Of a stretch of 64,000 bases of DNA, positions 4,761 through 63,382 are shown one piece after another. Position numbers and translations under genes: made by a program. The stretch lies in contig JAVHNX010000051.1 of assembly GCA_036169735.1 (NCBI GenBank), positions 8,569 to 72,568 of the forward strand. Reading direction: 5' to 3'. Every line of letters begins with the position of its first letter. Within the stretch, counting starts at the first letter, position 1. The notes beneath the pieces are model-generated. The model was not told the origin of the DNA, searched no databases, and saw only the letters and a list, made by a program, of their open reading frames with translations. Source of the stretch: Minisyncoccota bacterium (GTDB taxonomy: Bacteria > Patescibacteriota > Minisyncoccia > Phycocordibacterales > UBA9973).

Positions 4761-6281
4761 TTATTTTTCCAAATCTAGAATTTCATCAATCCTAATTTGT
4801 TTTACGAATTCTGGTACGTGAGAAACCAAGATCATCGCTCCTTGGTATTTATCCAGCGCTTCGGCAATTACCGGCAAGTGACGGAAGTTTATATGGTTTG
4901 TTGGCTCGTCTAAGATGAGCAAGCCTGGCTTTTGAAGTACTAGTCTAGCAAAAGATACTAGACCTTTTTGTCCTTCAGACAAGCTACCAATACGAGTACG
5001 GATAAATTCTCCAGTAATCAAGAATCCTGCAGCAATAGAACGCATTCTTTCTTCATCCAATTTTTCTCCACCATCAAGCATTGCACTCGCAAGAGATTGG
5101 TACACTGTGTCGTCAAAATTGAGTGTAGAGAAGTCTTGTCGGTAATACCCAATACGAATACCTTCTTTGACTGTCTCCCCTTCAGACTTGCCACTCGCAA
5201 GTTTTTCCAACAAAGTACTCTTGCCAATACCATTAGGGCCGGCCAAAAGTAAGTGCTGATTTTTCTTCAAAGAAATATTCGCTTTATGTTTTACTATTTT
5301 ATGTTTTTTAGGATCCATTATCGAAAAAGAATTGATACTAAATATCTCACCAACCATATCTGGCTGAGATGGAATAGTAAAAGGTCGAATGGTCCTGTCT
5401 TCTTTGCGAACCTCCACAATATCTTCTTCAAGTTCTTCCGCTTTCTCACGCATACGTCGCGCAACTAATCTTAGTCGTCCTCCTTTGTGCGCGAAGACAT
5501 TGGCCTGATCTTTCTTGGCTTGAATTTCTTTTGCGAGTTGAGCGTTCTTTGCATTTTCTCTCTCGACTCGAGCAGTAATATCTTTCACCACATTAAAATA
5601 GTTCCCGACGTATTGTTCAATCTTTCGAGTATAAACATCTAAATACAGGACACCTTCAGTAAAAGCATTCAAAAATTCCGCATCGTGGGAAATAACCAAA
5701 ACAGTTTTTGTATAACTCATCAAAAATTTTGTCAGGTGAGCAATACCGGCTTTGTCGAGATTGTTTGTCGGTTCATCGAGCAAAAGTAAATCTGGGTCCT
5801 GAATAAGAGCAGAAGCCAAGAGTAAACGAGCTTGTTGACCACCAGAAAAAGTTTTAATTATTCTGTCATGCACTTTATCGTGGCCTTTTAAATTTACTAC
5901 TTCTAAAATATCATTAATCTTTACATCAATGTTGTAAATCTTTTTTTGAACACCCTCACCCCGTTCCTCTCCCTTATGGAGAGGGGGTTCCATAAAACAT
6001 TTTTCAAAAAATTCTCGGACTGTTAGGTCAAGTTGATCACGAGGGATAACCTGTCGTGCGGAAGCGATAGTCAAACCTTTTACAACATTAATGATTCCGG
6101 ATTCCGGTTTGAAAGAACTAGAGATAAGTCCGAAGATAGTACTCTTTCCAGCACCATTCTGACCCATCAAAGTGAACTTTGCGCCACGGCGAATAGAAAA
6201 ACTAACCTCTTCTAAAATAGGTTTGTTTATTCCGAACTCAAACGAGACATCATCGAATCGAACTATAGTTTCTTGAGCCAT
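4761..6281 (-). CDS. ABC-F family ATPase (two tandem ABC domains, no TMD)
   Basis: Two Walker A motifs (GQNGAGKST, GPNGIGKST), two signature motifs (LSGGQ, LSEGQ) and two Walker B motifs (LLLDEPTN, LILDEPTNH). Contains an in-frame GC-rich palindromic element at 5951-5992. Confidence 0.85.
   Translation of the reverse strand: MAQETIVRFDDVSFEFGINKPILEEVSFSIRRGAKFTLMGQNGAGKSTIFGLISSSFKPESGIINVVKGLTIASARQVIPRDQLDLTVREFFEKCFMEPPLHKGEERGEGVQKKIYNIDVKINDILEVVNLKGHDKVHDRIIKTFSGGQQARLLLASALIQDPDLLLLDEPTNNLDKAGIAHLTKFLMSYTKTVLVISHDAEFLNAFTEGVLYLDVYTRKIEQYVGNYFNVVKDITARVERENAKNAQLAKEIQAKKDQANVFAHKGGRLRLVARRMREKAEELEEDIVEVRKEDRTIRPFTIPSQPDMVGEIFSINSFSIMDPKKHKIVKHKANISLKKNQHLLLAGPNGIGKSTLLEKLASGKSEGETVKEGIRIGYYRQDFSTLNFDDTVYQSLASAMLDGGEKLDEERMRSIAAGFLITGEFIRTRIGSLSEGQKGLVSFARLVLQKPGLLILDEPTNHINFRHLPVIAEALDKYQGAMILVSHVPEFVKQIRIDEILDLEK
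5951..5992. repeat. GC-rich palindromic element, family A, inserted in-frame in the ABC-F gene
   Basis: CACCCTCACCCCGTTCCTCTCCCTTATGGAGAGGGGGTT encodes an extra peptide EPPLHKGEERGEGV. Same family as the copies at 9431, 18688 and 51356. Confidence 0.6.
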
Positions 6282-6712: not shown

Positions 6713-6722
6713 TATTCAATAA

Positions 6723-6757
6723 AAAACACCCCGACCTTGGTCGGGGTGTTTTTTATT
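6723..6757. terminator. Bidirectional hairpin terminator
   Basis: AAAAACACCCCGACCTTGGTCGGGGTGTTTTTT. Confidence 0.7.
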
Positions 6758-9142: not shown

Positions 9143-10085
9143 ATGCCTGAATTACCAGAAGTAGAGACAACCACTAGGGGCCTGAGAAAAGAGACTGTAG
9201 GCCTTAAAATAAAAGACGTTTGGACAGATTTAAATACCAAGGATAAACGTCAACATGATGCGGTCGCGAACCCGAAGTATTTTACTATTTTTAAAAAAGA
9301 AGTCGCGAACAAAAAAATAATATCAGTAGAAAGACAGGCAAAAAATATTTTGATAAATATGTCGGGTGGCAAAACTATTTTAATTCACCTAAAAATGACT
9401 GGTCATCTACTTTATGGAAAGTATAAATTTCACCCCTCCCCAACCCTCCCCTTAGCAAAGGGAGGGAGAAGTGTGGGGTCAATGGCTACCAGACGAACAG
9501 GGACCGCTACAAGACCCTTACAACAGGTTCATACATGTTATTTTTACTTTATCCAATAAAAAACATTTAGCTTTTTCAGATGCACGCAAATTTGGAAAGA
9601 TAACTTTGCTTGATACTAAAACAGCTCATGATTCAAGACATCTAAAAGATTTAGGACCAGATCCCCTATCTAAAGATTTTAGTTTAGAAAAATTTAAAGA
9701 AAGACTTTTTAAAAAACCAAATGGAAAAATAAAAACAATTCTAGTAGACCAGAGTGTACTCACTGGTATCGGAAATATTTATTCTGATGAAATACTTTGG
9801 TATGCAGGAATTCATCCAGAAAGAAGAGTGAAAGATATTAAGGAAAATGAATTCAAAAAAATGTTTCAAGTCACCAAAGAGACTTTAACTAAAGGTATAA
9901 ACTTTGGTGGAGACTCAATGTCAGATTACCGCAATATTTATGGTCTTCCAGGCAAATTTCAACTACACCACGAAGCTTATCATAGAACTGGGGAGAAATG
10001 CAGAAGAAAAGGATGCAAGGGTGTTATAATAAGAAAAGTTATTAATAGTCGGAGCGCACATTTTTGCTCCATTCATCAAATTTAA
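9143..10085 (+). pseudogene. fpg: Formamidopyrimidine-DNA glycosylase (Fpg/MutM), reading frame interrupted by a 49-bp GC-rich palindromic element (9431-9479)
   Basis: N-terminus MPELPEVE. C-terminal zinc finger CRRKGCKGV...CSIHQ. The two ORFs (9143-9559 and 9471-10085) are both Fpg segments in different frames. Removing nt 9431-9479 joins ...GKYKF to QWLPDEQGPLQDPYNRF... in frame. Confidence 0.75.
9431..9479. repeat. GC-rich palindromic element, family A (49 bp), disrupting fpg
   Basis: CACCCCTCCCCAACCCTCCCCTTAGCAAAGGGAGGGAGAAGTGTGGGGT. Its reverse complement matches the family A consensus CCTCCCCCTTnnnAAGGGGGAGGnTGGGAGGGGGT. Confidence 0.7.
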
Positions 10086-13972: not shown

Positions 13973-16432
13973 TTATTTAACCTCTCCAAAATTATTTCCT
14001 GATCCAGAATGAACCTCTAGTGGGACGTCTGTTTTGAAGTGCAGATATGACCTTGAGAGTACTGTTTCCATTGCATTTAATATTATTTTTTCAGCTTTTG
14101 GCAGGACACTTTCCTCTATTTCGTAGACAATTTCATCATGAATTTGAAGTACCAAATGGGCCTTTTCCAATAAACCAGCCTCTTTTAGGTCTTCACAGCT
14201 GTAACGCATTGCTAGTTTGATAAGATCAGCCGCAGTTCCCTGCAAAGGTGCATTCGTAGCAGTACGTTCTGCCATTTTTTGTAAAAATGGAATTCTAGAT
14301 TTTATATTTGGAAAATATCTTTTTCTGCCAAACAAAGTCTCAGTGTAAGCATTTTTTGTTGCTGCAGCCTTGACCTCTTCTAAATAATCTCGCACACCTG
14401 AGAATTGATTAAAATAATTATCGTAAAAAGTTTGTGCTTCTGCTAGAGTACCTCCGAGATTTTTCTTTAGACTCGAAACTCCCATACCATAAATAATACC
14501 GAAGTTTATAACTTTCGCCCGACGACGCATTTCTTTGTCGATTTTATCCATTGGTACACCAAACACAAAAGAGGCTACCCCAGAGTGAATATCTTTTTTT
14601 TCTTTAAAAATCTGGGTCATTTTTTTATCACCCGAAAGTATCGCGGCAACACGAAGCTCAATCTGACTATAATCAAAAGCTGCGAGCTTGTAACCTTTCT
14701 CTGCTATGAACCCTCCACGGATTCTCCTACCGAGTTCTGATTTGATTGGTAAGTTTTGTAAATTTGGATCTTGAGATGAGAATCTTCCAGTCGTCGTGCC
14801 ATTCTGCAAAAACTTTGCGTGCAAGCGATTGTCTTCAGTCGTCATTTTTGGAATAACATCAATATAAGTAGAAAGTAATTTTTGTAATTCTCGGTAACTC
14901 ATTATTTCTTTTATGATTGGGTTCCCCTCTTCTAGTTCTTCGAGAACTGAAATCTTGGTTGAAAAAGAACCACTCGTACCTTTTTTCTTGGTAGTTTTAA
15001 TTCCCATTTTTTCAAAAAGAACTTCGGCAAGTTGTTTGGGAGAATTTATATTAAATTCTGTGCCAGCTATTTCATAAATCTTTTTGGTCAACTTATCCAA
15101 CTCAATATGATACTCAGCTGACAAACTTTCAAAATATTTTTTATCAATCAATATTCCATGATCTTGCATTTCTTTCACAATCGGCATTATCGGTTTTTCT
15201 ACTTCATCGAAAACAAGAGTGAGTTTTTCTTCATGAAGCTTTTTAAATACATATTCATAAGCAACCTTAAAAGACTCAGTCTTGGCATAAAATAAAATAT
15301 CATCCAAGCTTGGGTTCGTCATATCAGAATTGATAAGCCACAAAGCAATAGAGGCTTCCTGTAGCTCATTTGGATATATCTCTTCAATATTCTCTGCCAC
15401 AGAAGGCCCCTGTAAATTTAGAGGTTTTTCCGATGGTCTGGCCGAGCTTACTAGCGAAGGAGATCCGAGGACCTCGGTAAAATCTGCTAAATTTTCAGGG
15501 GCCTTCCCGTCACCTTTATTAAAAAAACCTCTTACTCTTGAGAGTAAACTCCTAAATTCAAACTCAGAAAAAACATGTTCAACTTTTTTCAAATCAGCAG
15601 CATCCCAAAAAGTCTTTTCTGGCATACTGAAATCTACCGGAGCATCAGTTCTTATTTTCGCTAATACTTTTGAAAACTCAGCTTCTTCTTCATTATTTTT
15701 TATCAGTTCGATGATTCTAGGTTTGATACCTGCTTTAATAAAAACTTCCGGGTCTTTCTTTATTTTTTTATAAATTTCCTCAATAGTTCCAAAATTAACA
15801 ATCAAATCTGTCGCAGTCTTTTCTCCAATACCTTTGATACCGATAATATTATCAGATGGGTCACCTCGTAGACCTTTGTAGTCCGGCAAGAGTCTTGGTT
15901 CGAAACCAAATCTTTCTTTCATTTTTTCTTCATCATATAAAATAGTGTCATTGATTCCCTTCTTCAAAGTAAAGACTTGGACTTTTTTACCATCTACGAG
16001 CTGCATTGTATCCATATCACCGGAAGCAATAATAATATTTATAGTTTTATCTTTTTTAAATTTTTCAACAATTGTACCCAAGACATCATCCGCTTCGAAA
16101 CCTGGGGCGTCATAAATCGGAATATTAAAAGCCTCAAAAATTTGTCGGGAACTTTTTAATTGTGAGATCAATCCTTCATCAGCTTTCGCTCGGCCTGCTT
16201 TGTATTTATCATAAGCTTCATGACGAAAAGTTTTCTGTGGCAAGTCATAACAAGCCACAATATAATCCGGCTTCAAATCAGTGATGATCTTCATTAACAT
16301 TGTTGAAAGACCATAGAGTGCACCAGTCGGCTCACCCTTGGACGACATAAATTCCGGCAAAGCATGATAAGCACGATGAATTATCGCATGTGAATCGAGC
16401 AACACTAATGTTTTAAGTTTATCATTTTTCAT
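13973..16432 (-). CDS. polA: DNA polymerase I (5'-3' exonuclease domain plus polymerase domain)
   Basis: FEN-like N-terminus LLDSHAIIHRAYHA. Pol A motifs DYSQIELRVAAILSGD, RRRAKVINFGIIYGMG and LQIHDEIVYE. Confidence 0.9.
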   Translation of the reverse strand: MKNDKLKTLVLLDSHAIIHRAYHALPEFMSSKGEPTGALYGLSTMLMKIITDLKPDYIVACYDLPQKTFRHEAYDKYKAGRAKADEGLISQLKSSRQIFEAFNIPIYDAPGFEADDVLGTIVEKFKKDKTINIIIASGDMDTMQLVDGKKVQVFTLKKGINDTILYDEEKMKERFGFEPRLLPDYKGLRGDPSDNIIGIKGIGEKTATDLIVNFGTIEEIYKKIKKDPEVFIKAGIKPRIIELIKNNEEEAEFSKVLAKIRTDAPVDFSMPEKTFWDAADLKKVEHVFSEFEFRSLLSRVRGFFNKGDGKAPENLADFTEVLGSPSLVSSARPSEKPLNLQGPSVAENIEEIYPNELQEASIALWLINSDMTNPSLDDILFYAKTESFKVAYEYVFKKLHEEKLTLVFDEVEKPIMPIVKEMQDHGILIDKKYFESLSAEYHIELDKLTKKIYEIAGTEFNINSPKQLAEVLFEKMGIKTTKKKGTSGSFSTKISVLEELEEGNPIIKEIMSYRELQKLLSTYIDVIPKMTTEDNRLHAKFLQNGTTTGRFSSQDPNLQNLPIKSELGRRIRGGFIAEKGYKLAAFDYSQIELRVAAILSGDKKMTQIFKEKKDIHSGVASFVFGVPMDKIDKEMRRRAKVINFGIIYGMGVSSLKKNLGGTLAEAQTFYDNYFNQFSGVRDYLEEVKAAATKNAYTETLFGRKRYFPNIKSRIPFLQKMAERTATNAPLQGTAADLIKLAMRYSCEDLKEAGLLEKAHLVLQIHDEIVYEIEESVLPKAEKIILNAMETVLSRSYLHFKTDVPLEVHSGSGNNFGEVK

Positions 16433-16556
16433 TAATGAAAATTATAGCATTTATAGTGATTTTATTTAAAAAACGGTAGGTCTTGCCTACAGCTTACATT
16501 ATTGTTCCAGTTCACGTTCACCTTACAAAGCTCGCCTTTTGCAATAAAACCATCTC

Positions 16557-16608
16557 TTCCGCTAGGTTTCCGCTAGGTCTTTCCGCTAGGTCTTGCCTAG
16601 CGGAAGAT
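16557..16608. repeat. REP-like hairpin cluster (left flank of RAYT): TTCCGCTAGGT tandemly repeated three times, then the inverted copy CCTAGCGGAAG
   Basis: Seen directly. Forms the hairpin CTTCCGCTAGG-tcttg-CCTAGCGGAAG. A partial related hairpin (GTAGGTCTTGCCTAC) lies at about 16470. Confidence 0.7.
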
Positions 16609-17257
16609 TATAATTGAACCAATCAAAAACTTCTTGCCAAAAAACATCTTCAGTTGGAAAATACTTCGGAAAAGATTTCCTATCTAAAATCTTTTCCTCT
16701 ACTCTTTTGAATCCGGAATAATCAAGGAAACTTGAGTATTGATAATTTTTAAGATAATTTAACGTAATATTTTTATTTTTAATACCCTTTTCTATCCATT
16801 CTTTATCTATTAGTTTAATGGGATTAAAATGAATATAAGAAAATACATATTTCAAATATTGATCAGTATTGAGATGTTGTGATTTAAACTTACCTTCGAA
16901 TAATCCACCTGTTCGCTTATATTTTTTATTATAATACATCACATAAGCAGTAGAAAGCTTTTGCATAAATTTACTTAGGTTCCCATCATCTCCTTGAGTA
17001 ATCAATAAATGAAAATGATTAGGCATCAAACAATATGCTCCGATACTAACTAATGGACTATTTCTATCTATATCAAATAAAGTATCTCCTTTCGACAAAT
17101 TATCAATTTTAAAGTTATCTTTCTGGTTACAAGCATACAAAAGACCAATAAAGTGAACATAATCTTCTTTACTATTAAAAATTTTTTGCTTACTGTTTCC
17201 CCTATTATAAATATGATAATACTCACCTAGAGCAAACGGCACTGTGCGTATAGACAT
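16586..17257 (-). mobile_element. REP-associated tyrosine transposase (RAYT; IS200/IS605-type Y1 HUH transposase TnpA)
   Basis: Conserved motifs YHIYNRGN.KQ.IF and LMPNHFHLLI (HUH). Flanked by inverted REP-like hairpins at 16557-16608 and 17277-17316. Start chosen at MSIRTVPF; the ORF track extends to 17329 through the REP. Confidence 0.75.
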
Positions 17258-17276
17258 AATATTATTATATACTTTC

Positions 17277-17316
17277 CTCTCCGCTAGGCAAGACCTAGCG
17301 GAAGACCTAGCGGAAC
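17277..17316. repeat. REP-like hairpins (right flank of RAYT): CCGCTAGGcaagacCTAGCGGAAGACCTAGCGGAA
   Basis: Same CCGCTAGG/CCTAGCGG palindrome as the left flank, in inverted orientation. Confidence 0.7.
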
Positions 17317-17605
17317 ACACGCGTCCCAAACCATGAAACGCTGTATATTATTTGGAAAATAAATTTCTCCAGATTATCTCACCAACAAATTATTTTTTAT
17401 TTTTTCACAATACCACAACTCTTTTGTTAGGCATTACCCAACAAAACTCTCTGTAATATTGCAAATATATCTTTTACCCTAAGCTTGTACTAGGACACAA
17501 CCAAAGATAACAAAAGAATACATACCTATTATACAAAATTACATAAAAAAATCCCCCTGAAAAATTTCAGAGGGATTAAGAGATTAAGAACTTAAGGGTT
17601 TAGTC

Positions 17606-18442
17606 TTAAGAATTTAAGCGAAATGTTGCAGGAACCACAAAACGATGCCGACCCGAAGCACACCAAACACTGTAGTACGACAACCTGTCGACATTGAGCA
17701 GCAAGCGACCATCGTCACTGAAGTACACGTCGGCAACGAAGAACTCTTTCTTTTTTTCAACTTCTTCTTCAAAAAGGAAGAAAGTTCCACAACCATCCGT
17801 GCGAAGCCATGAAGAGTTTTCAAGACAAAATTTTTCAATTTGTTCCTGTGAATCAAATTTCAATTTCTTAAGATCCACATTGAATGAATTAAAAATTTCT
17901 TTGAAAGTTCCATCTTTAGCATGCATTTCCCAAACTTCTGCTTCTGTTTCCAAAGTAGCCGGCTGAGCAGTATCAAGTTTCCAATTTTTAAAATCATTAT
18001 CTAAATGAGCAGGAAAACTTTTACTAGCATAAGCCAATGAAGCTCTCGGTCCACCAGTGCAAGCAGAAATTTTTGGATTTTTACCTCCTGAAATCAAGCG
18101 GAGGTGAGATGTTTCTTTTACTTCATTTGTTATTGCAGATTTAATTGTTTCAACTTTTGGGAAAATTTTACGGAACATTTCTTCCATAATTTTTGGAAGA
18201 TCTTTATTCCCAATAATTTCATTTTGCATATCCTCTTCGTAAACCCAAGATGGGATTGCTTTTAAGATTGCATTATTTGCTTCGGTAGTATGCTTTGCAA
18301 ACTTTCCGACATTCTCAATTAGTTTTGTCATGAGCATTTCGTATTTTATTGTAAAAGAAATATAGATTTTCGAGCGAAGCTCAGGCAGTCTTTTGACCTT
18401 AAAACTAGATAAAGTATAGCACAAAAAGTGGTCATTTGTCAA
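17606..18442 (-). CDS. Hypothetical protein
   Basis: Long ORF directly downstream of tsaE. No recognisable motifs. The true start is probably internal (MLMTKLIENVGKF). Confidence 0.4.
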   Translation of the reverse strand: MTNDHFLCYTLSSFKVKRLPELRSKIYISFTIKYEMLMTKLIENVGKFAKHTTEANNAILKAIPSWVYEEDMQNEIIGNKDLPKIMEEMFRKIFPKVETIKSAITNEVKETSHLRLISGGKNPKISACTGGPRASLAYASKSFPAHLDNDFKNWKLDTAQPATLETEAEVWEMHAKDGTFKEIFNSFNVDLKKLKFDSQEQIEKFCLENSSWLRTDGCGTFFLFEEEVEKKKEFFVADVYFSDDGRLLLNVDRLSYYSVWCASGRHRFVVPATFRLNS

Positions 18443-18462: not shown

Positions 18463-18951
18463 TTATAGTCCTTTTATCTTGAAGCTTCTATGCCCTTCTT
18501 TGGTATGCGAGATTGAAATCTTGTGATGTTTTTTCGGCATAGCTTTTTTAACATTCTCCGGCCATTCAATAAAAACTAAATGTTCTGGGTTTGAAATTAT
18601 TTCTGCCCAGCCTAGATTTAAGAGTTCTTGTTCGTTTTTTAATCTGTATGCGTCTAAGTGAAAAAGATTCTTGAACCCGTTCTTTCTCCTCCCCCTTACC
18701 AAGGGGGAGGTTGGGAGGGGGTTCTTCAGTGGATACCGCCTCATAATCACATAAGTCGGACTATTCACCTTGCCCTTGATACCCAAAAGTTTCGCGACGG
18801 CTTGAGTGAAAGTAGTCTTCCCTGTTCCGAGTTCACCCGACAAACCAATAACGCACGCGTTTTTACATTCTTTATTTAAAACGGTATCGAGGAATTCTTC
18901 CGCTATCTTTTCTGTGTCTTTTTGATTTTTTGAAATTATCTTATTTGGCAT
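18463..18951 (-). CDS. tsaE: tRNA threonylcarbamoyladenosine biosynthesis ATPase TsaE (YjeE)
   Basis: P-loop LSGELGTGKTTFTQ and the ...SPTYVIMRRYPL...HLDAYRL pattern. Contains an in-frame family-A element adding about PLPTSPLVRGRR. Confidence 0.75.
   Translation of the reverse strand: MPNKIISKNQKDTEKIAEEFLDTVLNKECKNACVIGLSGELGTGKTTFTQAVAKLLGIKGKVNSPTYVIMRRYPLKNPLPTSPLVRGRRKNGFKNLFHLDAYRLKNEQELLNLGWAEIISNPEHLVFIEWPENVKKAMPKKHHKISISHTKEGHRSFKIKGL
18688..18723. repeat. GC-rich palindromic element, family A, in-frame in tsaE
   Basis: CCTCCCCCTTACCAAGGGGGAGGTTGGGAGGGGGTT. Confidence 0.65.
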
Positions 18952-23718: not shown

Positions 23719-23720
23719 AA

Positions 23721-23764
23721 CCCTACCCCGGAGATAGGGGATTTCCCCTATCCCCGGGGTAGGG
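23721..23764. repeat. GC-rich palindromic element, family C (near-perfect 21-bp arms around a TTT loop)
   Basis: CCCTACCCCGGAGATAGGGGATTTCCCCTATCCCCGGGGTAGGG. Shares the TAGGGGATTTCCCCTA core with the copy at 31853. Confidence 0.65.
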
Positions 23765-23783
23765 TGCGTGCTAAACTTTAACT

Positions 23784-28690: not shown

Positions 28691-28701
28691 AAAAACAAAA
28701 A

Positions 28702-28722
28702 GCCCCCGACCGAAGTCGGGGG
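28702..28722. terminator. Hairpin terminator, followed by a second hairpin
   Basis: GCCCCCGACCGAAGTCGGGGGC plus T-run, then TACGGAGGCAACGCCTCCGTA. Confidence 0.65.
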
Positions 28723-28793
28723 CTTTTTGTTTATCTTCTACGGAGGCAACGCCTCCGTATTTAACAAAAATATCAAGGGTAGTCCTTGATATT

Positions 28794-29051
28794 TTATCTA
28801 AAACTCTGTGGAGATCTTTTACCAAGAGTTTCTTCTAATTTGGTAAATATTTTATCTCTCTTTAAAAATATCTCGTTTTTATAGACTGGTTTTATATTTA
28901 GGTATATCGTGCCGTTTTTTATTTTTATATCTTCTGATTTTATTTGTATTCCGATTGCTTCAGAAATAATACTTCTAATAGTTTCCTTTTGTGCCTCACC
29001 TGAGGTGAGAAGGTGACTAAATTTTAAAAGTAAGTCTTTTATTTCTATCAT
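28794..29051 (-). CDS. Small DUF721/DciA-like protein downstream of dnaN
   Basis: 85-aa protein. Its position (dnaA-dnaN-small ORF) and the segment IKNGTIYLNIKPVYKNEIF resemble DUF721. Weak support. Confidence 0.35.
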   Translation of the reverse strand: MIEIKDLLLKFSHLLTSGEAQKETIRSIISEAIGIQIKSEDIKIKNGTIYLNIKPVYKNEIFLKRDKIFTKLEETLGKRSPQSFR

Positions 29052-31762: not shown

Positions 31763-31852
31763 TAGTTCCTATTATACTATCCCTTTCAACTTAAGGAACT
31801 TCCCAAAACTTATTAACTATGTTTATAAGCTGTTGATAACTTTTTTAATAAT

Positions 31853-31898
31853 CCCCTATGTCAGACTTAGGGGATTTCCCCTAAGTCTGACATAGGGG
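31853..31898. repeat. GC-rich palindromic element, family C (perfect 22-bp arms, TTT loop) in the dnaA-rpmH intergenic (origin) region
   Basis: CCCCTATGTCAGACTTAGGGGATTTCCCCTAAGTCTGACATAGGGG. Confidence 0.7.
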
Positions 31899-31954
31899 AA
31901 ATATGTGGTTAATCAAAATTTGATTTATTATAAATAATGTTATAGTATGTACTC

Positions 31955-33554: not shown

Positions 33555-34046
33555 ATGGATAAAACAGAAATACAAAACTTAATAAAAGAATTGATTGAAA
33601 ATATGGCAATTTCCGTTAAAGAAATTGTTGTTTCCCAAGAAGATGATTCTAAAACCGTTTGGTATTCAGTAAGTGTTTCTGAACCACATTTCTTTACTAC
33701 TCGCGAAGGAGAGGCTCTTGCTTCTCTTAATCACCTTGTTAGAAGGATTATTGAATCTAAAACCCCTATGTCAGACATAGGGGAAGCTAAAAATGCACAA
33801 TATAATCCTATCCTGATAGATATTGGTGATTTTCAAAAGAAAAGAGTAGCAAATATTAAAACAATCGCTCATATGATGGCTGAGAGAGCTCGTTATTTCA
33901 AATCAAATATAGAAGTTGACCCAATGTCTGCTTTTGACCGTCGTATTGTACACGAGCATCTTTCAAATGCTACAGACCTTAAGACAGAATCATCTGGTTT
34001 TGGTCCTACTCGCCGAGTTGTTATTAAATATATTGGAGAACTCTAA
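33555..34046 (+). CDS. Jag-like KH/R3H RNA-binding protein
   Basis: C-terminal R3H segment FDRRIVHEHLSN...GFGPTRRVVIKY. Position after yidC. Contains an in-frame family-C palindrome (33763-33783) adding about TPMSDIG. Confidence 0.7.
   Translation: MDKTEIQNLIKELIENMAISVKEIVVSQEDDSKTVWYSVSVSEPHFFTTREGEALASLNHLVRRIIESKTPMSDIGEAKNAQYNPILIDIGDFQKKRVANIKTIAHMMAERARYFKSNIEVDPMSAFDRRIVHEHLSNATDLKTESSGFGPTRRVVIKYIGEL
33763..33783. repeat. GC-rich palindrome, family C (short form CCCCTATGTCAGACATAGGGG), in-frame in the jag-like gene
   Basis: Same arms as the 31853 copy but lacks the inner TTAGGGGATTTCCCCTAA core. Confidence 0.6.
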
Positions 34047-51176: not shown

Positions 51177-52160
51177 CTACTGAGCTAGCGAAATCCAATC
51201 TTCTAGTTTCAGTTCTTCGGCTCGTTTGTTTCCTAGCTCGGTTTTTTTGTATTGGACACCTGCATCTGCAAGGTTTTTTGAAAGTTTCTTTCTTTTGTGA
51301 GCAAAACCAGCTTTTACTATTTCCCAGAATTTCTCTTCGTCTGTATTTTTGTTCTCCTCCCCCTTAATAAGGGGGAGGCTGGGAGGGGGTGAATTTAAGA
51401 ACCTCACCCCAACCCCCTCCTCAACAAGGAGGGGGGTAAAAAAATTCTTCCTAGAAATATTTTTGATAGCTATCACAGCTGAATCCACTTTAGGTGCTGG
51501 TGAAAAATATCTTGCTGGTACTTTCATTATTATTTTTGGTTCTCCGTAAGCCTTTACTGATATAGATAAAATACTTTCTTTGCCGTCTCGTGCGACTATT
51601 CTTTTTGCTACTTCGTGTTGAACCATCAAGACCATTGTTTCAGGCTGATGTGCGTCTGTTAGGAATTTTTTTAATATTGCGCCGGTTATGTTGTATGGGA
51701 TGTTTGCGATTATTTTATAATCTTGAAGGATATTACTTTGAAAACCGCACATATTTCCCTGCTGGGAAATTGCTATGCTCGGCCCGTCGGCCTCCGCAAT
51801 GCTTTTCAAAACAATATTCTTCAAGATTATTTCGAGGTTTAACTCCAAAATATCTCCCCTAATTAAAACTAATTTTTTGGTAGCTATTTCTTCACTAAAT
51901 TTTTCGGTAAGTGTCTCAATAAGGTCACGATCTTTTTCTACAGCTATTACTACCCCTGCTTTTTCTAGAAGCTTTTCAGTAAGAGCTCCTTTGCCTGGGC
52001 CAATTTCTAAAATGACATCAGTAGGTGTTATATCCCCCGCTTCTACTATAGCCCGTAAGGCTGGTTCTGATTTTAGGAAGTTTTGTCCTAAAGCCTTTTT
52101 GGCTCGGACGAACCCGTGTACGGGTTTTAGTTCTAATGATTTTTTTGCTTTATGTATCAT
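51177..52160 (-). CDS. ksgA: 16S rRNA (adenine1518/1519-N6)-dimethyltransferase RsmA/KsgA, carrying two in-frame palindromic-element insertions
   Basis: KKALGQNFL...ILEIGPGKGALT SAM motif. At 327 aa it is long for KsgA. The extra segments TPLLVEEGVGVRFLNSPPPSLPLIKGEE (family A) and SIAEADGPSIAISQQGNMCGF (family B) account for the excess. Confidence 0.8.
   Translation of the reverse strand: MIHKAKKSLELKPVHGFVRAKKALGQNFLKSEPALRAIVEAGDITPTDVILEIGPGKGALTEKLLEKAGVVIAVEKDRDLIETLTEKFSEEIATKKLVLIRGDILELNLEIILKNIVLKSIAEADGPSIAISQQGNMCGFQSNILQDYKIIANIPYNITGAILKKFLTDAHQPETMVLMVQHEVAKRIVARDGKESILSISVKAYGEPKIIMKVPARYFSPAPKVDSAVIAIKNISRKNFFTPLLVEEGVGVRFLNSPPPSLPLIKGEENKNTDEEKFWEIVKAGFAHKRKKLSKNLADAGVQYKKTELGNKRAEELKLEDWISLAQ
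51356..51437. repeat. GC-rich palindromic element, family A, two head-to-head copies in-frame in ksgA
   Basis: CCTCCCCCTTAATAAGGGGGAGGCTGGGAGGGGGTG...CTCACCCCAACCCCCTCCTCAACAAGGAGGGGGGT. Confidence 0.65.
51741..51806. repeat. GC-rich palindromic element, family B (reverse orientation), in-frame in ksgA
   Basis: AAAACCGCACATATTTCCCTGCTGGGAAATTGCTATGCTCGGCCCGTCGGCCTCCGCAATGCTTTT. Confidence 0.65.
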
Positions 52161-59562: not shown

Positions 59563-61887
59563 CTATCTTGTTTTTGTTGGTGCAAATTCACTTTCTTCGT
59601 ACATTTTTTTCAATAAATCCTTTTTCTTATCCAGGTTCCCTGTTTTAATAGCTTCCACAATCTCTGGGTTTTCTGGTTTATTCTTTATGTCTGTAAAGAA
59701 CTTTTCAAAATTATCTAACTCATCTATGTTTTGATTTGGCATCCCTTTCATAAGCGCCGCTATTTTGTCTTCTAAATCTTTTATTTTCTTTTCTGTTTCA
59801 GACATCTCCTGTTTTGGTAGTTCTTCTATCTCTTCTTTTTTTATTGGTTCGTTTGTTTTTGATTCTTCCTTTGTTTGTATTTCGAGTTCCTTTTCTTTCG
59901 TGTTTTTAGAGGAAGAGTAAGGTTCTTTTGCTTCCACTGAAGCATCAGGGTTTTTTATGATATCCAAAAATTGTTTCTCGGTTAGATTTTTTATTTTTCC
60001 AAAAACCATCACACCTCTTATTTCTGATGCACAACCAGGATCAACTTCATTTAATTTTTCAATAACCTTACCTAGATTGGGATGTTTTGAATTTATGAAA
60101 AATGTTTTATTGCTCTTGTTTTTGCTCCAACTTACAAAAGTATCATAACCAAGAGCTTTGGTTCCAATAAAAGCTCGGTTGTTTGGAATTTGGTTTGGTT
60201 TATAGCTATTTCCATCTTTTTCTTTTATTGGTCGGAAGTCATGATATACAACTTTTCCTAAAGAAGTATTTTCTATCTTTTTTGCATTTTTAATACCGGT
60301 AATTGTCTGTTCCACATCTTCTGTTCGTGATTTTTTACATAATTCTGCAATACTAAATTCCCCTACTTTGGTTTTTCCAAGTTCACCCTCCAATTCTTCT
60401 TGAGTAAATGGAACAGAAGGATCTTTTATCTTTCCAGATTTTATCAATTCAAGTAAGGTATTGTAAGGGATTTTCTCAGCCATAGAGTAAAGAGAATCAG
60501 GCCATTTATTTCTGAAATAGTTCTCGTTAAAAGTTCTTGGTTTTTTTGCATCTTCATTTTCTAGGTAAGATAAATTATCAAAATCATTAACGAAATTAAC
60601 AAATTTATTTAACCATTCTGGTTTTTCTTTCAATAAGCCTGCTTTTTCCAATATTCGATACATCATCTTTGTTCCTGAGGTTGGTTTCCTTTGTCCTGTT
60701 CCATGATGATCAATACGAAGTGTGGTTGTCTTTCCATCTTCTTCGAGCTTCAACCAGCTACCTCCAGTATCAAGAAAAACTCTGACGCCTTCTACTTTTT
60801 CTTTTGGTTCCATTTCTCCTTTTCGAATATCAACTATTGTAGATTTGGCACCTTCATTATAAATTTCTTCAGGTTTATTTTTATTGAAATCATTTAAAAG
60901 CAATAAAGAGGTTTGTGAATCTAGGTCTTGATTAAAAGTTGCTATAGGGTCGCCTATTTTTCCACCAAGAAGTTTAGCTTGTTTTTCATTTTTAATTCTT
61001 TTGTTTCCAGCACTAACAATGACTTCACTGATCTTGTTGTTTTTTAGTATCTCAACAATTCTCTCTTCTGTCTCTTCTTCGGTTTCTATTTTACTTTCTG
61101 GTTTTAAATCGACTGAATTTTCTATAACAATAGGAGTCTCCTCTTTGTTGTTGTCCATAAGTGGCTCATTTGTTGCAGTTTCAACCTCAACCTTGTCTTC
61201 TCCCTTGGTTATTATTGTTTTTTTTGAATTTTCTTTCTCAAATTTATTTAATGCTTCCTGTCTTTTGTCTGATGCTGTGAATAAGATACCGTCTTTTTTA
61301 AAGTATTGCTCAAATTGAGCTCGAGTCAGCTCTAAAGGCTTCTCGTTTTTGTCGTTCGCATTTTTTTTAGATTGAATTAAAAGAATATTGTCTTTGGCAG
61401 TAGTTCTGGTTCCGACAATCATATAACTACCACTACGCACTTTTTCTTTATTATGGCCTACTGTTCCTCTTAATGTGAATTTACTTCCAATACCGATTTT
61501 CTTCTTTTCACCATCTTTTAAAGTAAGCTCTAATAGCTCTTTTCTGGGTATTCCTTTTTCCTCATCTGGTCTTTTTGTATATTCTCCAAAAAAAGCTCGT
61601 ACTACCTTGTCTACGGATCCTTTTTGAGGATTTATATTCCCTATTTTGTCTTCATTTTGTTTTGGTTTTATACCCCCTTTCTCTTTTCTTTCTTTAAAAG
61701 AGATTTCCTGTGCCTTTGTTCGACTTATTCTTTCTTTGATTGCTTCGGGTGTTGTCTCAACAGTAATTTTTATAGATGTATCTTCTTCTGCATCTTCTTC
61801 ATTTTGTTGTAGCATTGGTTGACTGTATTGAGGTACAGCCCCTTCTTTCTTGTATACTTTTTTAGATTGTTTATTATTTTCTAACAT
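59563..61887 (-). CDS. Large hypothetical protein (774 aa) with a weak DHH-like motif
   Basis: K/E-rich. The segment VFLDTGGSW...LRIDHHGTG resembles DHH phosphoesterase motifs II and III, but motif I is not evident. Confidence 0.4.
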   Translation of the reverse strand: MLENNKQSKKVYKKEGAVPQYSQPMLQQNEEDAEEDTSIKITVETTPEAIKERISRTKAQEISFKERKEKGGIKPKQNEDKIGNINPQKGSVDKVVRAFFGEYTKRPDEEKGIPRKELLELTLKDGEKKKIGIGSKFTLRGTVGHNKEKVRSGSYMIVGTRTTAKDNILLIQSKKNANDKNEKPLELTRAQFEQYFKKDGILFTASDKRQEALNKFEKENSKKTIITKGEDKVEVETATNEPLMDNNKEETPIVIENSVDLKPESKIETEEETEERIVEILKNNKISEVIVSAGNKRIKNEKQAKLLGGKIGDPIATFNQDLDSQTSLLLLNDFNKNKPEEIYNEGAKSTIVDIRKGEMEPKEKVEGVRVFLDTGGSWLKLEEDGKTTTLRIDHHGTGQRKPTSGTKMMYRILEKAGLLKEKPEWLNKFVNFVNDFDNLSYLENEDAKKPRTFNENYFRNKWPDSLYSMAEKIPYNTLLELIKSGKIKDPSVPFTQEELEGELGKTKVGEFSIAELCKKSRTEDVEQTITGIKNAKKIENTSLGKVVYHDFRPIKEKDGNSYKPNQIPNNRAFIGTKALGYDTFVSWSKNKSNKTFFINSKHPNLGKVIEKLNEVDPGCASEIRGVMVFGKIKNLTEKQFLDIIKNPDASVEAKEPYSSSKNTKEKELEIQTKEESKTNEPIKKEEIEELPKQEMSETEKKIKDLEDKIAALMKGMPNQNIDELDNFEKFFTDIKNKPENPEIVEAIKTGNLDKKKDLLKKMYEESEFAPTKTR

Positions 61888-63327: not shown

Positions 63328-63345
63328 ATTTAAATAAAAGAAAAA

Positions 63346-63369
63346 GCCCCCGACCTAGGTCGGGGGCTT
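63346..63369. terminator. Bidirectional hairpin terminator
   Basis: AGCCCCCGACCTAGGTCGGGGGCT flanked by A/T runs. Confidence 0.7.
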
Positions 63370-63382
63370 TTTCTTTTATTGT

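Follow-up and report, generated by a model that had tools for sequence, protein, structure and literature searches.

The window analysed here, a stretch of 64,000 nucleotides (64 kb) of contig JAVHNX010000051.1 from a Minisyncoccota bacterium (Patescibacteria), is AT-rich (30-40% G+C) and encodes, on its minus strand, an enzyme of the Y1 HUH type that resembles the REP-associated tyrosine transposases (RAYTs; REP, repetitive extragenic palindrome). The gene is flanked by inverted copies of a small hairpin and lies between polA and an open reading frame (ORF) of 278 codons, with the following layout:

13973-16432, minus strand: polA, one neighbour of the RAYT-type gene.
16468-16490, minus strand: degenerate third hairpin (16476-16490; GTAGG-CAAGA-CCTAC on the gene strand, GTAGG-TCTTG-CCTAC on the plus strand), then CG and a run of six T, between the RAYT-type gene and the promoter-like site of polA.
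16557-16580, minus strand: two extra tandem arm copies, gene-distal to the downstream hairpin, from the CCGCTAGG scan; read directly and written as the plus strand, they are TTCCGCTAGGT (16557-16567) and TTCCGCTAGGTCT (16568-16580).
16581-16605, minus strand: downstream hairpin, TTCCGCTAGG-CAAGA-CCTAGCGGAA on the gene strand (loop TCTTG on the plus strand), 10-bp stem.
16586-17257, minus strand: gene for the RAYT-type Y1 HUH enzyme, ATG at 17257, 223 aa.
17264-17291, minus strand: promoter-like signal (consensus scan, 10/12 matches).
17280-17302, minus strand: upstream hairpin, TCCGCTAGG-TCTTG-CCTAGCGGA on the gene strand (loop CAAGA on the plus strand), 9-bp stem and 5-nt loop.
17303-17315, minus strand: arm copy, AGACCTAGCGGAA on the plus strand (TTCCGCTAGGTCT on the minus strand), one arm and part of the loop, gene-distal to the upstream hairpin.
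17606-18442: 278-aa ORF without a Pfam family, the other neighbour of the RAYT-type gene; tsaE comes next beyond.

A RAYT-type gene between inverted hairpins

It is the recurrence of one short sequence that marks the flanks of the gene. CCGCTAGG occurs seven times in the window, against 0.32 occurrences expected by chance (none of 100 shuffles reached seven), and all seven matches fall in 16559-16603 and 17281-17313, the one at 17306-17313 lying in the arm copy at 17303-17315; the inverted clusters of a palindrome that an earlier, sequence-only reading of this stretch had placed on either side of the gene are thereby borne out. Read directly, the ends that flank the gene are true inverted repeats, loop included. 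Both hairpins fold as single-stranded DNA with z scores of about -4 (upstream, -10.7 kcal/mol and z = -4.1), and the extra arm copies at 16557-16580 permit alternative, register-shifted pairings. The downstream hairpin holds the last six codons and the stop of the RAYT-type gene, whose TAG occupies 16586-16588; at the other end, 22 nt separate the upstream hairpin from the ATG, and the centre of the hairpin is 34 nt before it. About 90 nt past the downstream hairpin is the degenerate hairpin, with two mismatches that compensate each other (one pair), which explains why the sequence-only reading had the element start at 16470. Elsewhere in the window no cognate hairpin was found at up to three mismatches in the 15-nt core, save for a single match with three mismatches at 60921, which is at chance level. 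No tRNA was found near the locus, and Rfam returned nothing (best E 0.96).

The enzyme matches Pfam Y1_Tnp (PF01797) over residues 70-143 with 37.2 bits, against a cut-off of 23. Its HUH motif is H81-F-H83 (17009-17017), and the catalytic-type tyrosine is Y141, in YIHFNP (16820-16837). An AlphaFold model (pLDDT 82.9; the C-terminal 80 residues helical) has as its best Foldseek match in the PDB a complex of E. coli RayT with a REP hairpin, 4er8 (TM 0.66 on the target, E 7.5e-6); the TnpA structures of IS608, ISDra2 and IS200 match more weakly (E 1.6e-3 and above), and human Thg1 chains rank between the two. When the protein is aligned with E. coli RayT by hhalign, NHFH falls opposite EHMH and YIHFNPIK opposite YIYINPVK. 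Searches of the PDB by sequence did not find RayT, whether the query was the protein alone or a profile of 31 sequences, the only relevant match being ISDra2 TnpA (E 0.77); the relation to RayT is apparent only from the predicted fold and from hhalign. No C-terminal helix-turn-helix (HTH)-like domain (Bac_DnaA_C, HTH_23, HTH_28) gave a Pfam match at E up to 0.1. The domain match and the closest fold uphold the assignment of ORF 16586-17257 to the Y1 HUH enzymes of RAYT type, as the sequence-only reading had it. Of the motifs on which that assignment was based, YHIYNRGN turns out to be a conserved N-terminal motif and not the HUH, the HUH itself is present, and neither the catalytic-type Y141 (YIHFNP) nor the minus strand had been mentioned.

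More than 7,900 homologs were scored, and the best 120, from Patescibacteria, Paceibacterota and Nomurabacteria, are 62-75% identical to the window protein over its whole length (about 220 aa); public annotation already calls a few of these 120 'REP-associated tyrosine transposase' or 'RayT'. An exhaustive library search gave 272 clusters (50% identity) at E <=1e-30 and 7,086 at E <=1e-10. In an alignment of 31 homologs, 62-73% identical over all 220 aa, N80-H-F-H83, Y141, H143 and N145 are invariant, P146 is nearly so, and many C-terminal positions are invariant too; the least conserved part of the family is aa 44-68, and the tyrosine motif reads YIHLNP in the family consensus and YIHFNP in the window protein. 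To judge from this alignment, the enzyme is intact and under purifying selection, and not a decayed fragment. That the ORF might be a degraded piece of IS200 is ruled out by its full length and by the best 120 homologs, which match over the whole protein. The window contains one RAYT homolog only, and the nearest one from another genome, among the best 120, is 75% identical, with no near-identical copies.

The upstream hairpin is also part of the promoter-like signal. On the gene strand, a -35 element TTGCCT (17291-17286), composed of the loop and the descending arm of the hairpin, is followed by a 16-nt spacer, a -10 element TATAAT (17269-17264), 6 nt and the ATG. At 17 close homolog loci, the centre of the hairpin lies at -34 to -36 from the ATG, and the consensus is AGGTCTTGCCT, 16-17 nt, TATAAT, 6-7 nt, ATG; conservation at the -10 positions is about 90%, and a Shine-Dalgarno sequence would not fit between TATAAT and the ATG. 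In the close relatives, then, the upstream hairpin looks like the source of the -35 hexamer of a leaderless or near-leaderless promoter, such an mRNA being implied by a TATAAT only 6-7 nt before the start codon. With the -35 supplied by the hairpin, binding of the enzyme or extrusion of the hairpin at this site would autoregulate the RAYT-type gene. In more distant homologs the position of the upstream hairpin varies from -22 to -88 from the ATG, and a promoter role would therefore be clade-specific and secondary. Past the gene, a signal scan called a terminator-like site at 16490-16476 and a promoter-like site for polA at 16470-16441. The degenerate hairpin folds weakly on its own (z = -1.35), and together with the T-run it looks like an intrinsic terminator; in this arrangement the downstream hairpin would end the ORF, and the decayed copy with its T-run would terminate transcription.

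Cognate hairpins in the enzyme family and in host genes

Eighty metagenomic loci encoding homologs of 47-71% identity were searched for hairpins (stem of 7 bp or more). Such a hairpin is found within 120 nt upstream of the gene at 61 of 77 loci (79%) and at or just past the stop at 56 of 72 (78%), against 5.5% of 125-nt windows from the same contigs. The REP-RAYT-REP arrangement that the sequence-only reading recognised from the inverted flanks in the window thus recurs across the family. The apical pairs are near-invariant (G-C in 57-58 of 58 hairpins, G-C in 53 and A-T in 56-57), giving an apex AGG-N5-CCT; stem positions 6-8 are paired in 58/58, with all four Watson-Crick pair types in use, and positions 9-10 in about 85-98%, figures that are partly circular in that the hairpins were chosen as hairpins. 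More telling are how far the loci exceed the background and how well their flanks agree: at 35 of 47 loci both sides of the gene have the same variable 5-mer, as opposed to 31 of 2162 comparisons between loci. In the sequences compared, the lower stem covaries, the apex is conserved, and the flanks of one locus usually agree. Stem types seen in the family include CCGCTAGG, TAGCTAGG, CCTGCAAGG, TGCGTTAGG, CTTGCTAGG and TGTGCTAGG, and among the more distant homologs xxAAGGT-tcg-ACCTTxx and CATAGGG-gta-CCCTATG. A tight specificity of enzyme for stem was considered and rejected, as enzymes with the same stem type are 47-85% identical and those with different types up to 73%.

In distant homologs there is often a third hairpin copy, in frame within the RAYT ORF. 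Internal cognate copies of this kind, about 150 or 270 nt past the start in homologs 47-53% identical, are found at L084, L088, L089, L091, L097, L098, L100, L102, L104, L119, L120, L123 and L134-L136; the RAYT-type gene of the window has none, the matching region of its protein being the poorly conserved aa 44-68. On contig L130 are two RAYT paralogs, separated by 5 kb and differing in hairpin type. The second (9337-10069) is flanked by CCACAGG-TCCGA-CCTGTGG and has an in-frame copy right after the HUH, NHFHIILI[SHRSDLW]T.

The tandem arm copies are likewise not peculiar to the window. Duplication of an arm and part of the loop occurred in at least 10 independent loci, beside hairpins of differing sequence (in the window at 16557-16580 and 17303-17315; elsewhere at L055, L058, L070, L072, L074, L089, L095, L104 and L112, and in protein P0132). 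Nicking at one fixed site of the loop was rejected as the origin of these duplications: the break points vary (TCT|TG, TCTT|G, right after AGG, or with the whole loop included), and because they differ between loci, replication slippage at the palindrome seems the more likely source. In one RNase HI, an arm duplication is in frame (CVRQDLTQDLTQ).

The hairpin is not confined to RAYT genes, and its other copies lie partly between genes and partly in frame within protein loops. Among species-representative genomes, 51 stretches contain the exact 19-mer CGCTAGGTCTTGCCTAGCG; almost all are from Patescibacteria, and in several genomes 2-4 contigs have it. Only 4 of the 51 places flank a RAYT homolog (64-73% protein identity, with an identical hairpin), and a fifth stretch, L026, is the apparent overlapping end of one of these, L030; about 46 copies are solitary, without a RAYT gene nearby. 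The conserved unit extends to 25 nt, Y-T-C-CGCTAGG-TCTTG-CCTAGCG-G-A-R, and beyond it no clear target-site motif was found around the 46 solitary copies, except for a mild T-richness on the 5' side. Moreover, the homolog loci, about 0.6 Mb in all, contain 16 further hairpins outside the RAYT flanks that match the stem type of their own RAYT, as well as non-cognate hairpins of the same class. One solitary copy (L018) is flanked by runs of A and T and is terminator-like. Other solitary copies, on L013, L041 and L057, lie between or beside tRNA-like genes, as judged by eye. On contig JAMPXW010000001.1 (276 kb; L031 and L056), from a metagenome-assembled genome labelled Burkholderiales, TruB-like and RNase HI-like genes contain the hairpin in frame, just like those of the Patescibacteria genomes; mis-binning may lie behind the label.

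About 26 of the solitary copies sit within long ORFs, always in the one open frame (L014 is included only through its ortholog L037). The exact copies in frame all read x-A-R-Q-D-L-A-x, for example SARQDLAE, with CAAGA as the loop on the coding strand, and the translated insert is eight codons (24 nt). The host genes encode RNase HI (five genomes), LigA (three), RNase HII, DapF, HolB and TruB (two each), as well as ArgRS, KsgA, RsmI, GatC, MurB, a helicase and others. In-frame insertion is not in itself a new phenomenon: intragenic, in-frame REPs are known from other phyla, and replication and repair genes hold many of them (PMC3733652).

RNase HI gives the closest view of these inserts. Among 120 orthologs, the loop past the 'ALKY' helix holds many palindrome-derived peptides (SARQDLAE, LARQDLAK, CVRQDLTQ, SARQGLAE, PARVVLAG and once, in the opposite reading, SARSCLAE) next to short forms free of any insert, and from genome to genome the site of insertion moves by a few residues. 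At two syntenic RecJ-RNase HI loci, L144 has CCGCTAGG-CAAGA-CCTAGCGG and L142 has TGCGTTAGG-CAAGA-CCTAACGCA; the two hairpins differ by two compensated pairs, and each is of a type that flanks a RAYT elsewhere. In KsgA, the same loop is occupied by different palindrome families in the window and in L039. We read these patterns as repeated colonisation or replacement of permissive loops, with concerted change in situ also possible. Near RecJ-RNase HI on one Patescibacteria contig, a reverse-transcriptase gene (RVT_1) is present at L144:3564-4586 and L145:141-1560, with a weak bAvd match beside it in L145; this gene is possibly part of a diversity-generating retroelement.

A probable REPtron-like unit and its alternatives

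The locus is, in our judgement, probably a REPtron-like unit of Patescibacteria (of the Paceibacterota/Nomurabacteria type), in which a conserved Y1 HUH enzyme is flanked by inverted cognate hairpins of 23-25 nt and mobilises them. In such a unit the enzyme would bind the apex and loop of the single-stranded hairpin, the DNA would be cut and rejoined via Y141 and an HUH-bound metal, by analogy with E. coli RayT and IS608 TnpA, and hairpins would be copied or moved to new sites at low frequency. Since copies within a genome have a common stem while lineages differ in theirs, turnover from a master copy, or homogenisation, is probable. The system is an atypical RAYT variant, without a GTAG foot, with a low hairpin copy number and with an NCBIfam score below the cut-off. 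Most of the REP/RAYT systems characterised so far are from Proteobacteria, and some are from Cyanobacteria and Bacteroidetes. In the literature searched we found no published description of REP/RAYT systems in this phylum, for which, as far as that literature goes, a REPtron-like system is new.

Several observations weigh against this interpretation. The window hairpin lacks the foot tetranucleotide GT[AG]G that defines canonical REPs and serves as the guide read by E. coli RayT; it has YTCC at the foot, its invariant bases are AGG/CCT at the apex, and only the decayed copy at 16476 starts with GTAGG. The NCBIfam RAYT equivalog NF047646 scores 48.9 bits, under its cut-off of 80. The similarity of the RAYTs and the type of stem are only loosely linked. 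The genome scan, in requiring an exact match, favours perfect copies and so overstates the conservation of the hairpin across species. The closest relatives of the enzyme (73-75% identity) are in unrelated gene contexts. Lastly, the remaining 63 kb of the window hold no further cognate copy, and dispersal in this genome is therefore unsupported, although the absence is unsurprising since the density of hairpins in the homolog loci is about one per 40-70 kb. The suggestion of the sequence-only reading that the system is active in this genome accordingly finds no backing in the rest of the window; hairpins at other sites, whose absence it would have taken as a refutation, are present in other Patescibacteria genomes (the 51 stretches, and cognate copies near the 80 homologous loci).

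The gene contexts themselves are polA and TsaE in the window, guaB with purine genes, and EamA with SecDF in close relatives. At none of the 80 loci do polA, TsaE or the 278-aa neighbour stand beside the RAYT homolog; on L020, polA lies beside the ATPase gene of a type II secretion system, and a clean empty site was not found. Since neighbourhoods differ while the RecJ-RNase HI housekeeping synteny is kept between such genomes, the cassette would appear to relocate on evolutionary time scales, and the differing neighbourhoods fit a moving cassette rather than a domesticated gene strictly fixed by vertical descent. Carriage by phage was rejected, 2.9 million viral contigs containing no homolog and one match to the hairpin, on a 4.7-kb contig.

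The best of the other explanations, which we nevertheless regard as unlikely, is that the enzyme is a domesticated, hairpin-specific nuclease or binding protein of single-stranded DNA, which serves the host, for instance at replication forks or as a regulator of genes for replication and repair, and no longer moves the hairpins, these being old, vertically inherited and selected. In its favour, the hairpin occupies the same loop of RNase HI, LigA, TruB, HolB, RNase HII and DapF in different species, and the strong conservation of the enzyme family in very small genomes and the many host genes in replication, repair and RNA metabolism (compare the intragenic REPs; PMC3733652) point the same way. 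The stems at the syntenic RNase HI site, however, differ by two compensatory pairs, each a RAYT-flank variant, and this requires replacement or homogenisation and not mere retention. The shift of the RNase HI insertion point between genomes also speaks against domestication, as does the KsgA loop with its different palindrome families, which argues for repeated colonisation of permissive loops.

A long-lived partnership of hairpin and enzyme, in which translated hairpins of eight codons, in the same loops of essential genes for replication, repair and RNA in different species, are kept in step with the master copies by enzyme-driven replacement or gene conversion, is possible but speculative, and we put it forward tentatively. 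If true, a REP population would be evolving in concert at orthologous coding sites, in genomes with a size of about 1 Mb, and strand-specific insertion would explain the near-exclusive xARQDLAx reading.

Less probable than domestication is an autonomous insertion sequence (IS) of IS200/IS605 type, its gene and end hairpins moving as one and the solitary hairpins being leftover ends or miniature derivatives. Its main attraction is that the closest relatives are in unrelated gene contexts while RecJ-RNase HI synteny holds; the ends, moreover, are inverted repeats, loop included. The TnpA proteins of this group (IS608, ISDra2) share with the window enzyme the catalytic fold and the recognition of hairpins on a single strand. 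They have, however, the tyrosine motif Y-x-x-x-Q found in IS200 (PMC6006769), not the Y-x-x-x-N-P of class 2 seen here, and a size of about 130-155 aa (about 150 aa for IS200 transposases, against 223 aa); they are multi-copy, have dissimilar hairpins on one strand as ends where those of the window are identical and inverted, and often come with tnpB, traits of which the window locus shows none. The single copy in the window and nearest homologs elsewhere at 73-75%, without the near-identical copies that an active IS leaves, also count against an IS, as does its absence from the 2.9 million viral contigs. Least probable of all is that the hairpins are merely cis-regulatory for the RAYT-type gene and the copies elsewhere an unrelated host use of the motif: the fixed centre at -34 to -36 with a conserved TATAAT at 17 loci, the low copy number and the terminator-like settings of the decayed copy with its T-run and of L018 would suit it, but 16 unlinked hairpins on the same contigs share the lineage-specific stem, some 26 in-frame copies in housekeeping ORFs cannot serve as promoter or terminator, and in distant homologs the upstream hairpin is anywhere from -22 to -88.

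Set beside known systems, the unit has the make-up of a REPtron, in which a RAYT gene is paired with its cognate REP. The REPtron of E. coli RayT (TnpA-REP, YafM) shares the Y1 HUH fold, the aligned HUH and Y-x-x-x-N-P motifs, the single copy (here, in the window), the inverted flanks of cognate palindrome and the dispersed copies (here, in relatives). The two enzymes are about 12% identical in the structural alignment and 21% over 72 profile-aligned columns, and the window enzyme has about 60 extra C-terminal residues. Unlike E. coli REP, the window hairpin type has its invariant part in the apex AGG/CCT and the loop, has a perfect stem of 9-11 bp without a bulge, is present in tens of copies per genome at most instead of hundreds, and is common in identical form to many Patescibacteria species.

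Y-x-x-x-N-P is the signature of class 2 (RAYT-like) enzymes, and NH[YF]H with Y[IV]HLNP that of subclass 2.1 (Quentin et al. 2018; PMC6006769). By its motifs our family resembles the latter, the family consensus having NHFH and YIHLNP, and it does so also in its length of about 220-240 aa with a C-terminal extension and in its low copy number. Subclass 2.1 corresponds to group 1 of Bertels and the 'TIRYT' of Di Nocera et al. 2013. Its members are reported to lack REP-like hairpins and to have terminal inverted repeats of the GGGGWSAS type and HTH-like C-terminal domains, whereas the window flanks are perfect hairpins without GGGGWSAS and the enzyme has no Pfam HTH. The repeats that flank group 1 genes are moderately abundant, with about 12 occurrences per replicon (PMC5581495). 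In subclass 2.4, from Cyanobacteria and Bacteroidetes, REP copies are in frame inside the transposase gene (PMC6006769), as they are in our distant homologs and in the second paralog of L130, but in that subclass the REPs have GT[AG]G and are either long or of the 'double foot' kind, which the window hairpin is not. The Rickettsia palindromic elements, finally, are likewise in-frame, translated palindromes tolerated in loops of conserved genes; they measure about 100-150 bp, against an insert of 24 nt here, and are unlinked to a flanked Y1 gene.

The combination of one Y1 gene, cognate hairpin flanks and dispersed copies is conserved over a large clade of ultra-small Patescibacteria genomes. 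An invariant apex with a freely covarying stem makes the determinants of recognition directly predictable, and the element is small enough to be translated, resides inside essential genes and carries a promoter element of the enzyme gene. It is of value chiefly for the co-variation seen across the family and for the copies that lie in frame within essential genes of minimal genomes, and it offers a compact natural data set on the co-evolution of hairpin and enzyme, on the concerted evolution of repeats and on the tolerance of proteins for inserted palindromes. For annotation, a caution follows: where a conserved protein of these genomes contains an odd short peptide such as SARQDLAE, the peptide comes from a repeat.

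Other palindromes in the window

A link between the RAYT hairpin and the other palindromes of the window (CCTCCCCC..., TCCCCTA...), which the sequence-only reading had drawn from their abundance, was rejected, since they belong to different families and lack the AGG-N5-CCT apex. Two hairpins that do have this apex, with other stems and loops, are TACGGAGG-CAACG-CCTCCGTA (28739-28759) and AAAATATCAAGG-GTAGT-CCTTGATATTTT (28767-28795). They stand side by side between convergent ORFs, just past a terminator-like hairpin (chance expectation 0.025), and the first is of the type that flanks the RAYT homolog of L132, which points to another hairpin family and perhaps also to another RAYT in some other part of the genome.

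G+C-rich palindromes are also found in frame, at 5966-5984, 9444-9466, 18688-18710 (tsaE), 33763-33783, and 51356-51378 with 51413-51435 (ksgA/rsmA). Their types are CCTCCCCC...GGGGGAGG and CCCCTATG...CATAGGGG, and the peptides encoded include TSPLVRGR, SLPLIKGEE and TPMSDIGE; in-frame palindromic inserts thus seem to be general in this genome, beyond the RAYT-linked hairpin. At 31852-31899 and 23720-23765 are near-perfect palindromes of TCCCCTA.../...TAGGGGA units, with arms of 22-23 nt; they are apparently intergenic, share these units with the element at 33763 and are probably among the other repeat families of the sequence-only reading. Symmetrical hairpins composed of an A-run, a GCCCCCGAC stem and a T-run, at 6718-6757, 28693-28732 and 63333-63380, resemble bidirectional intrinsic terminators.

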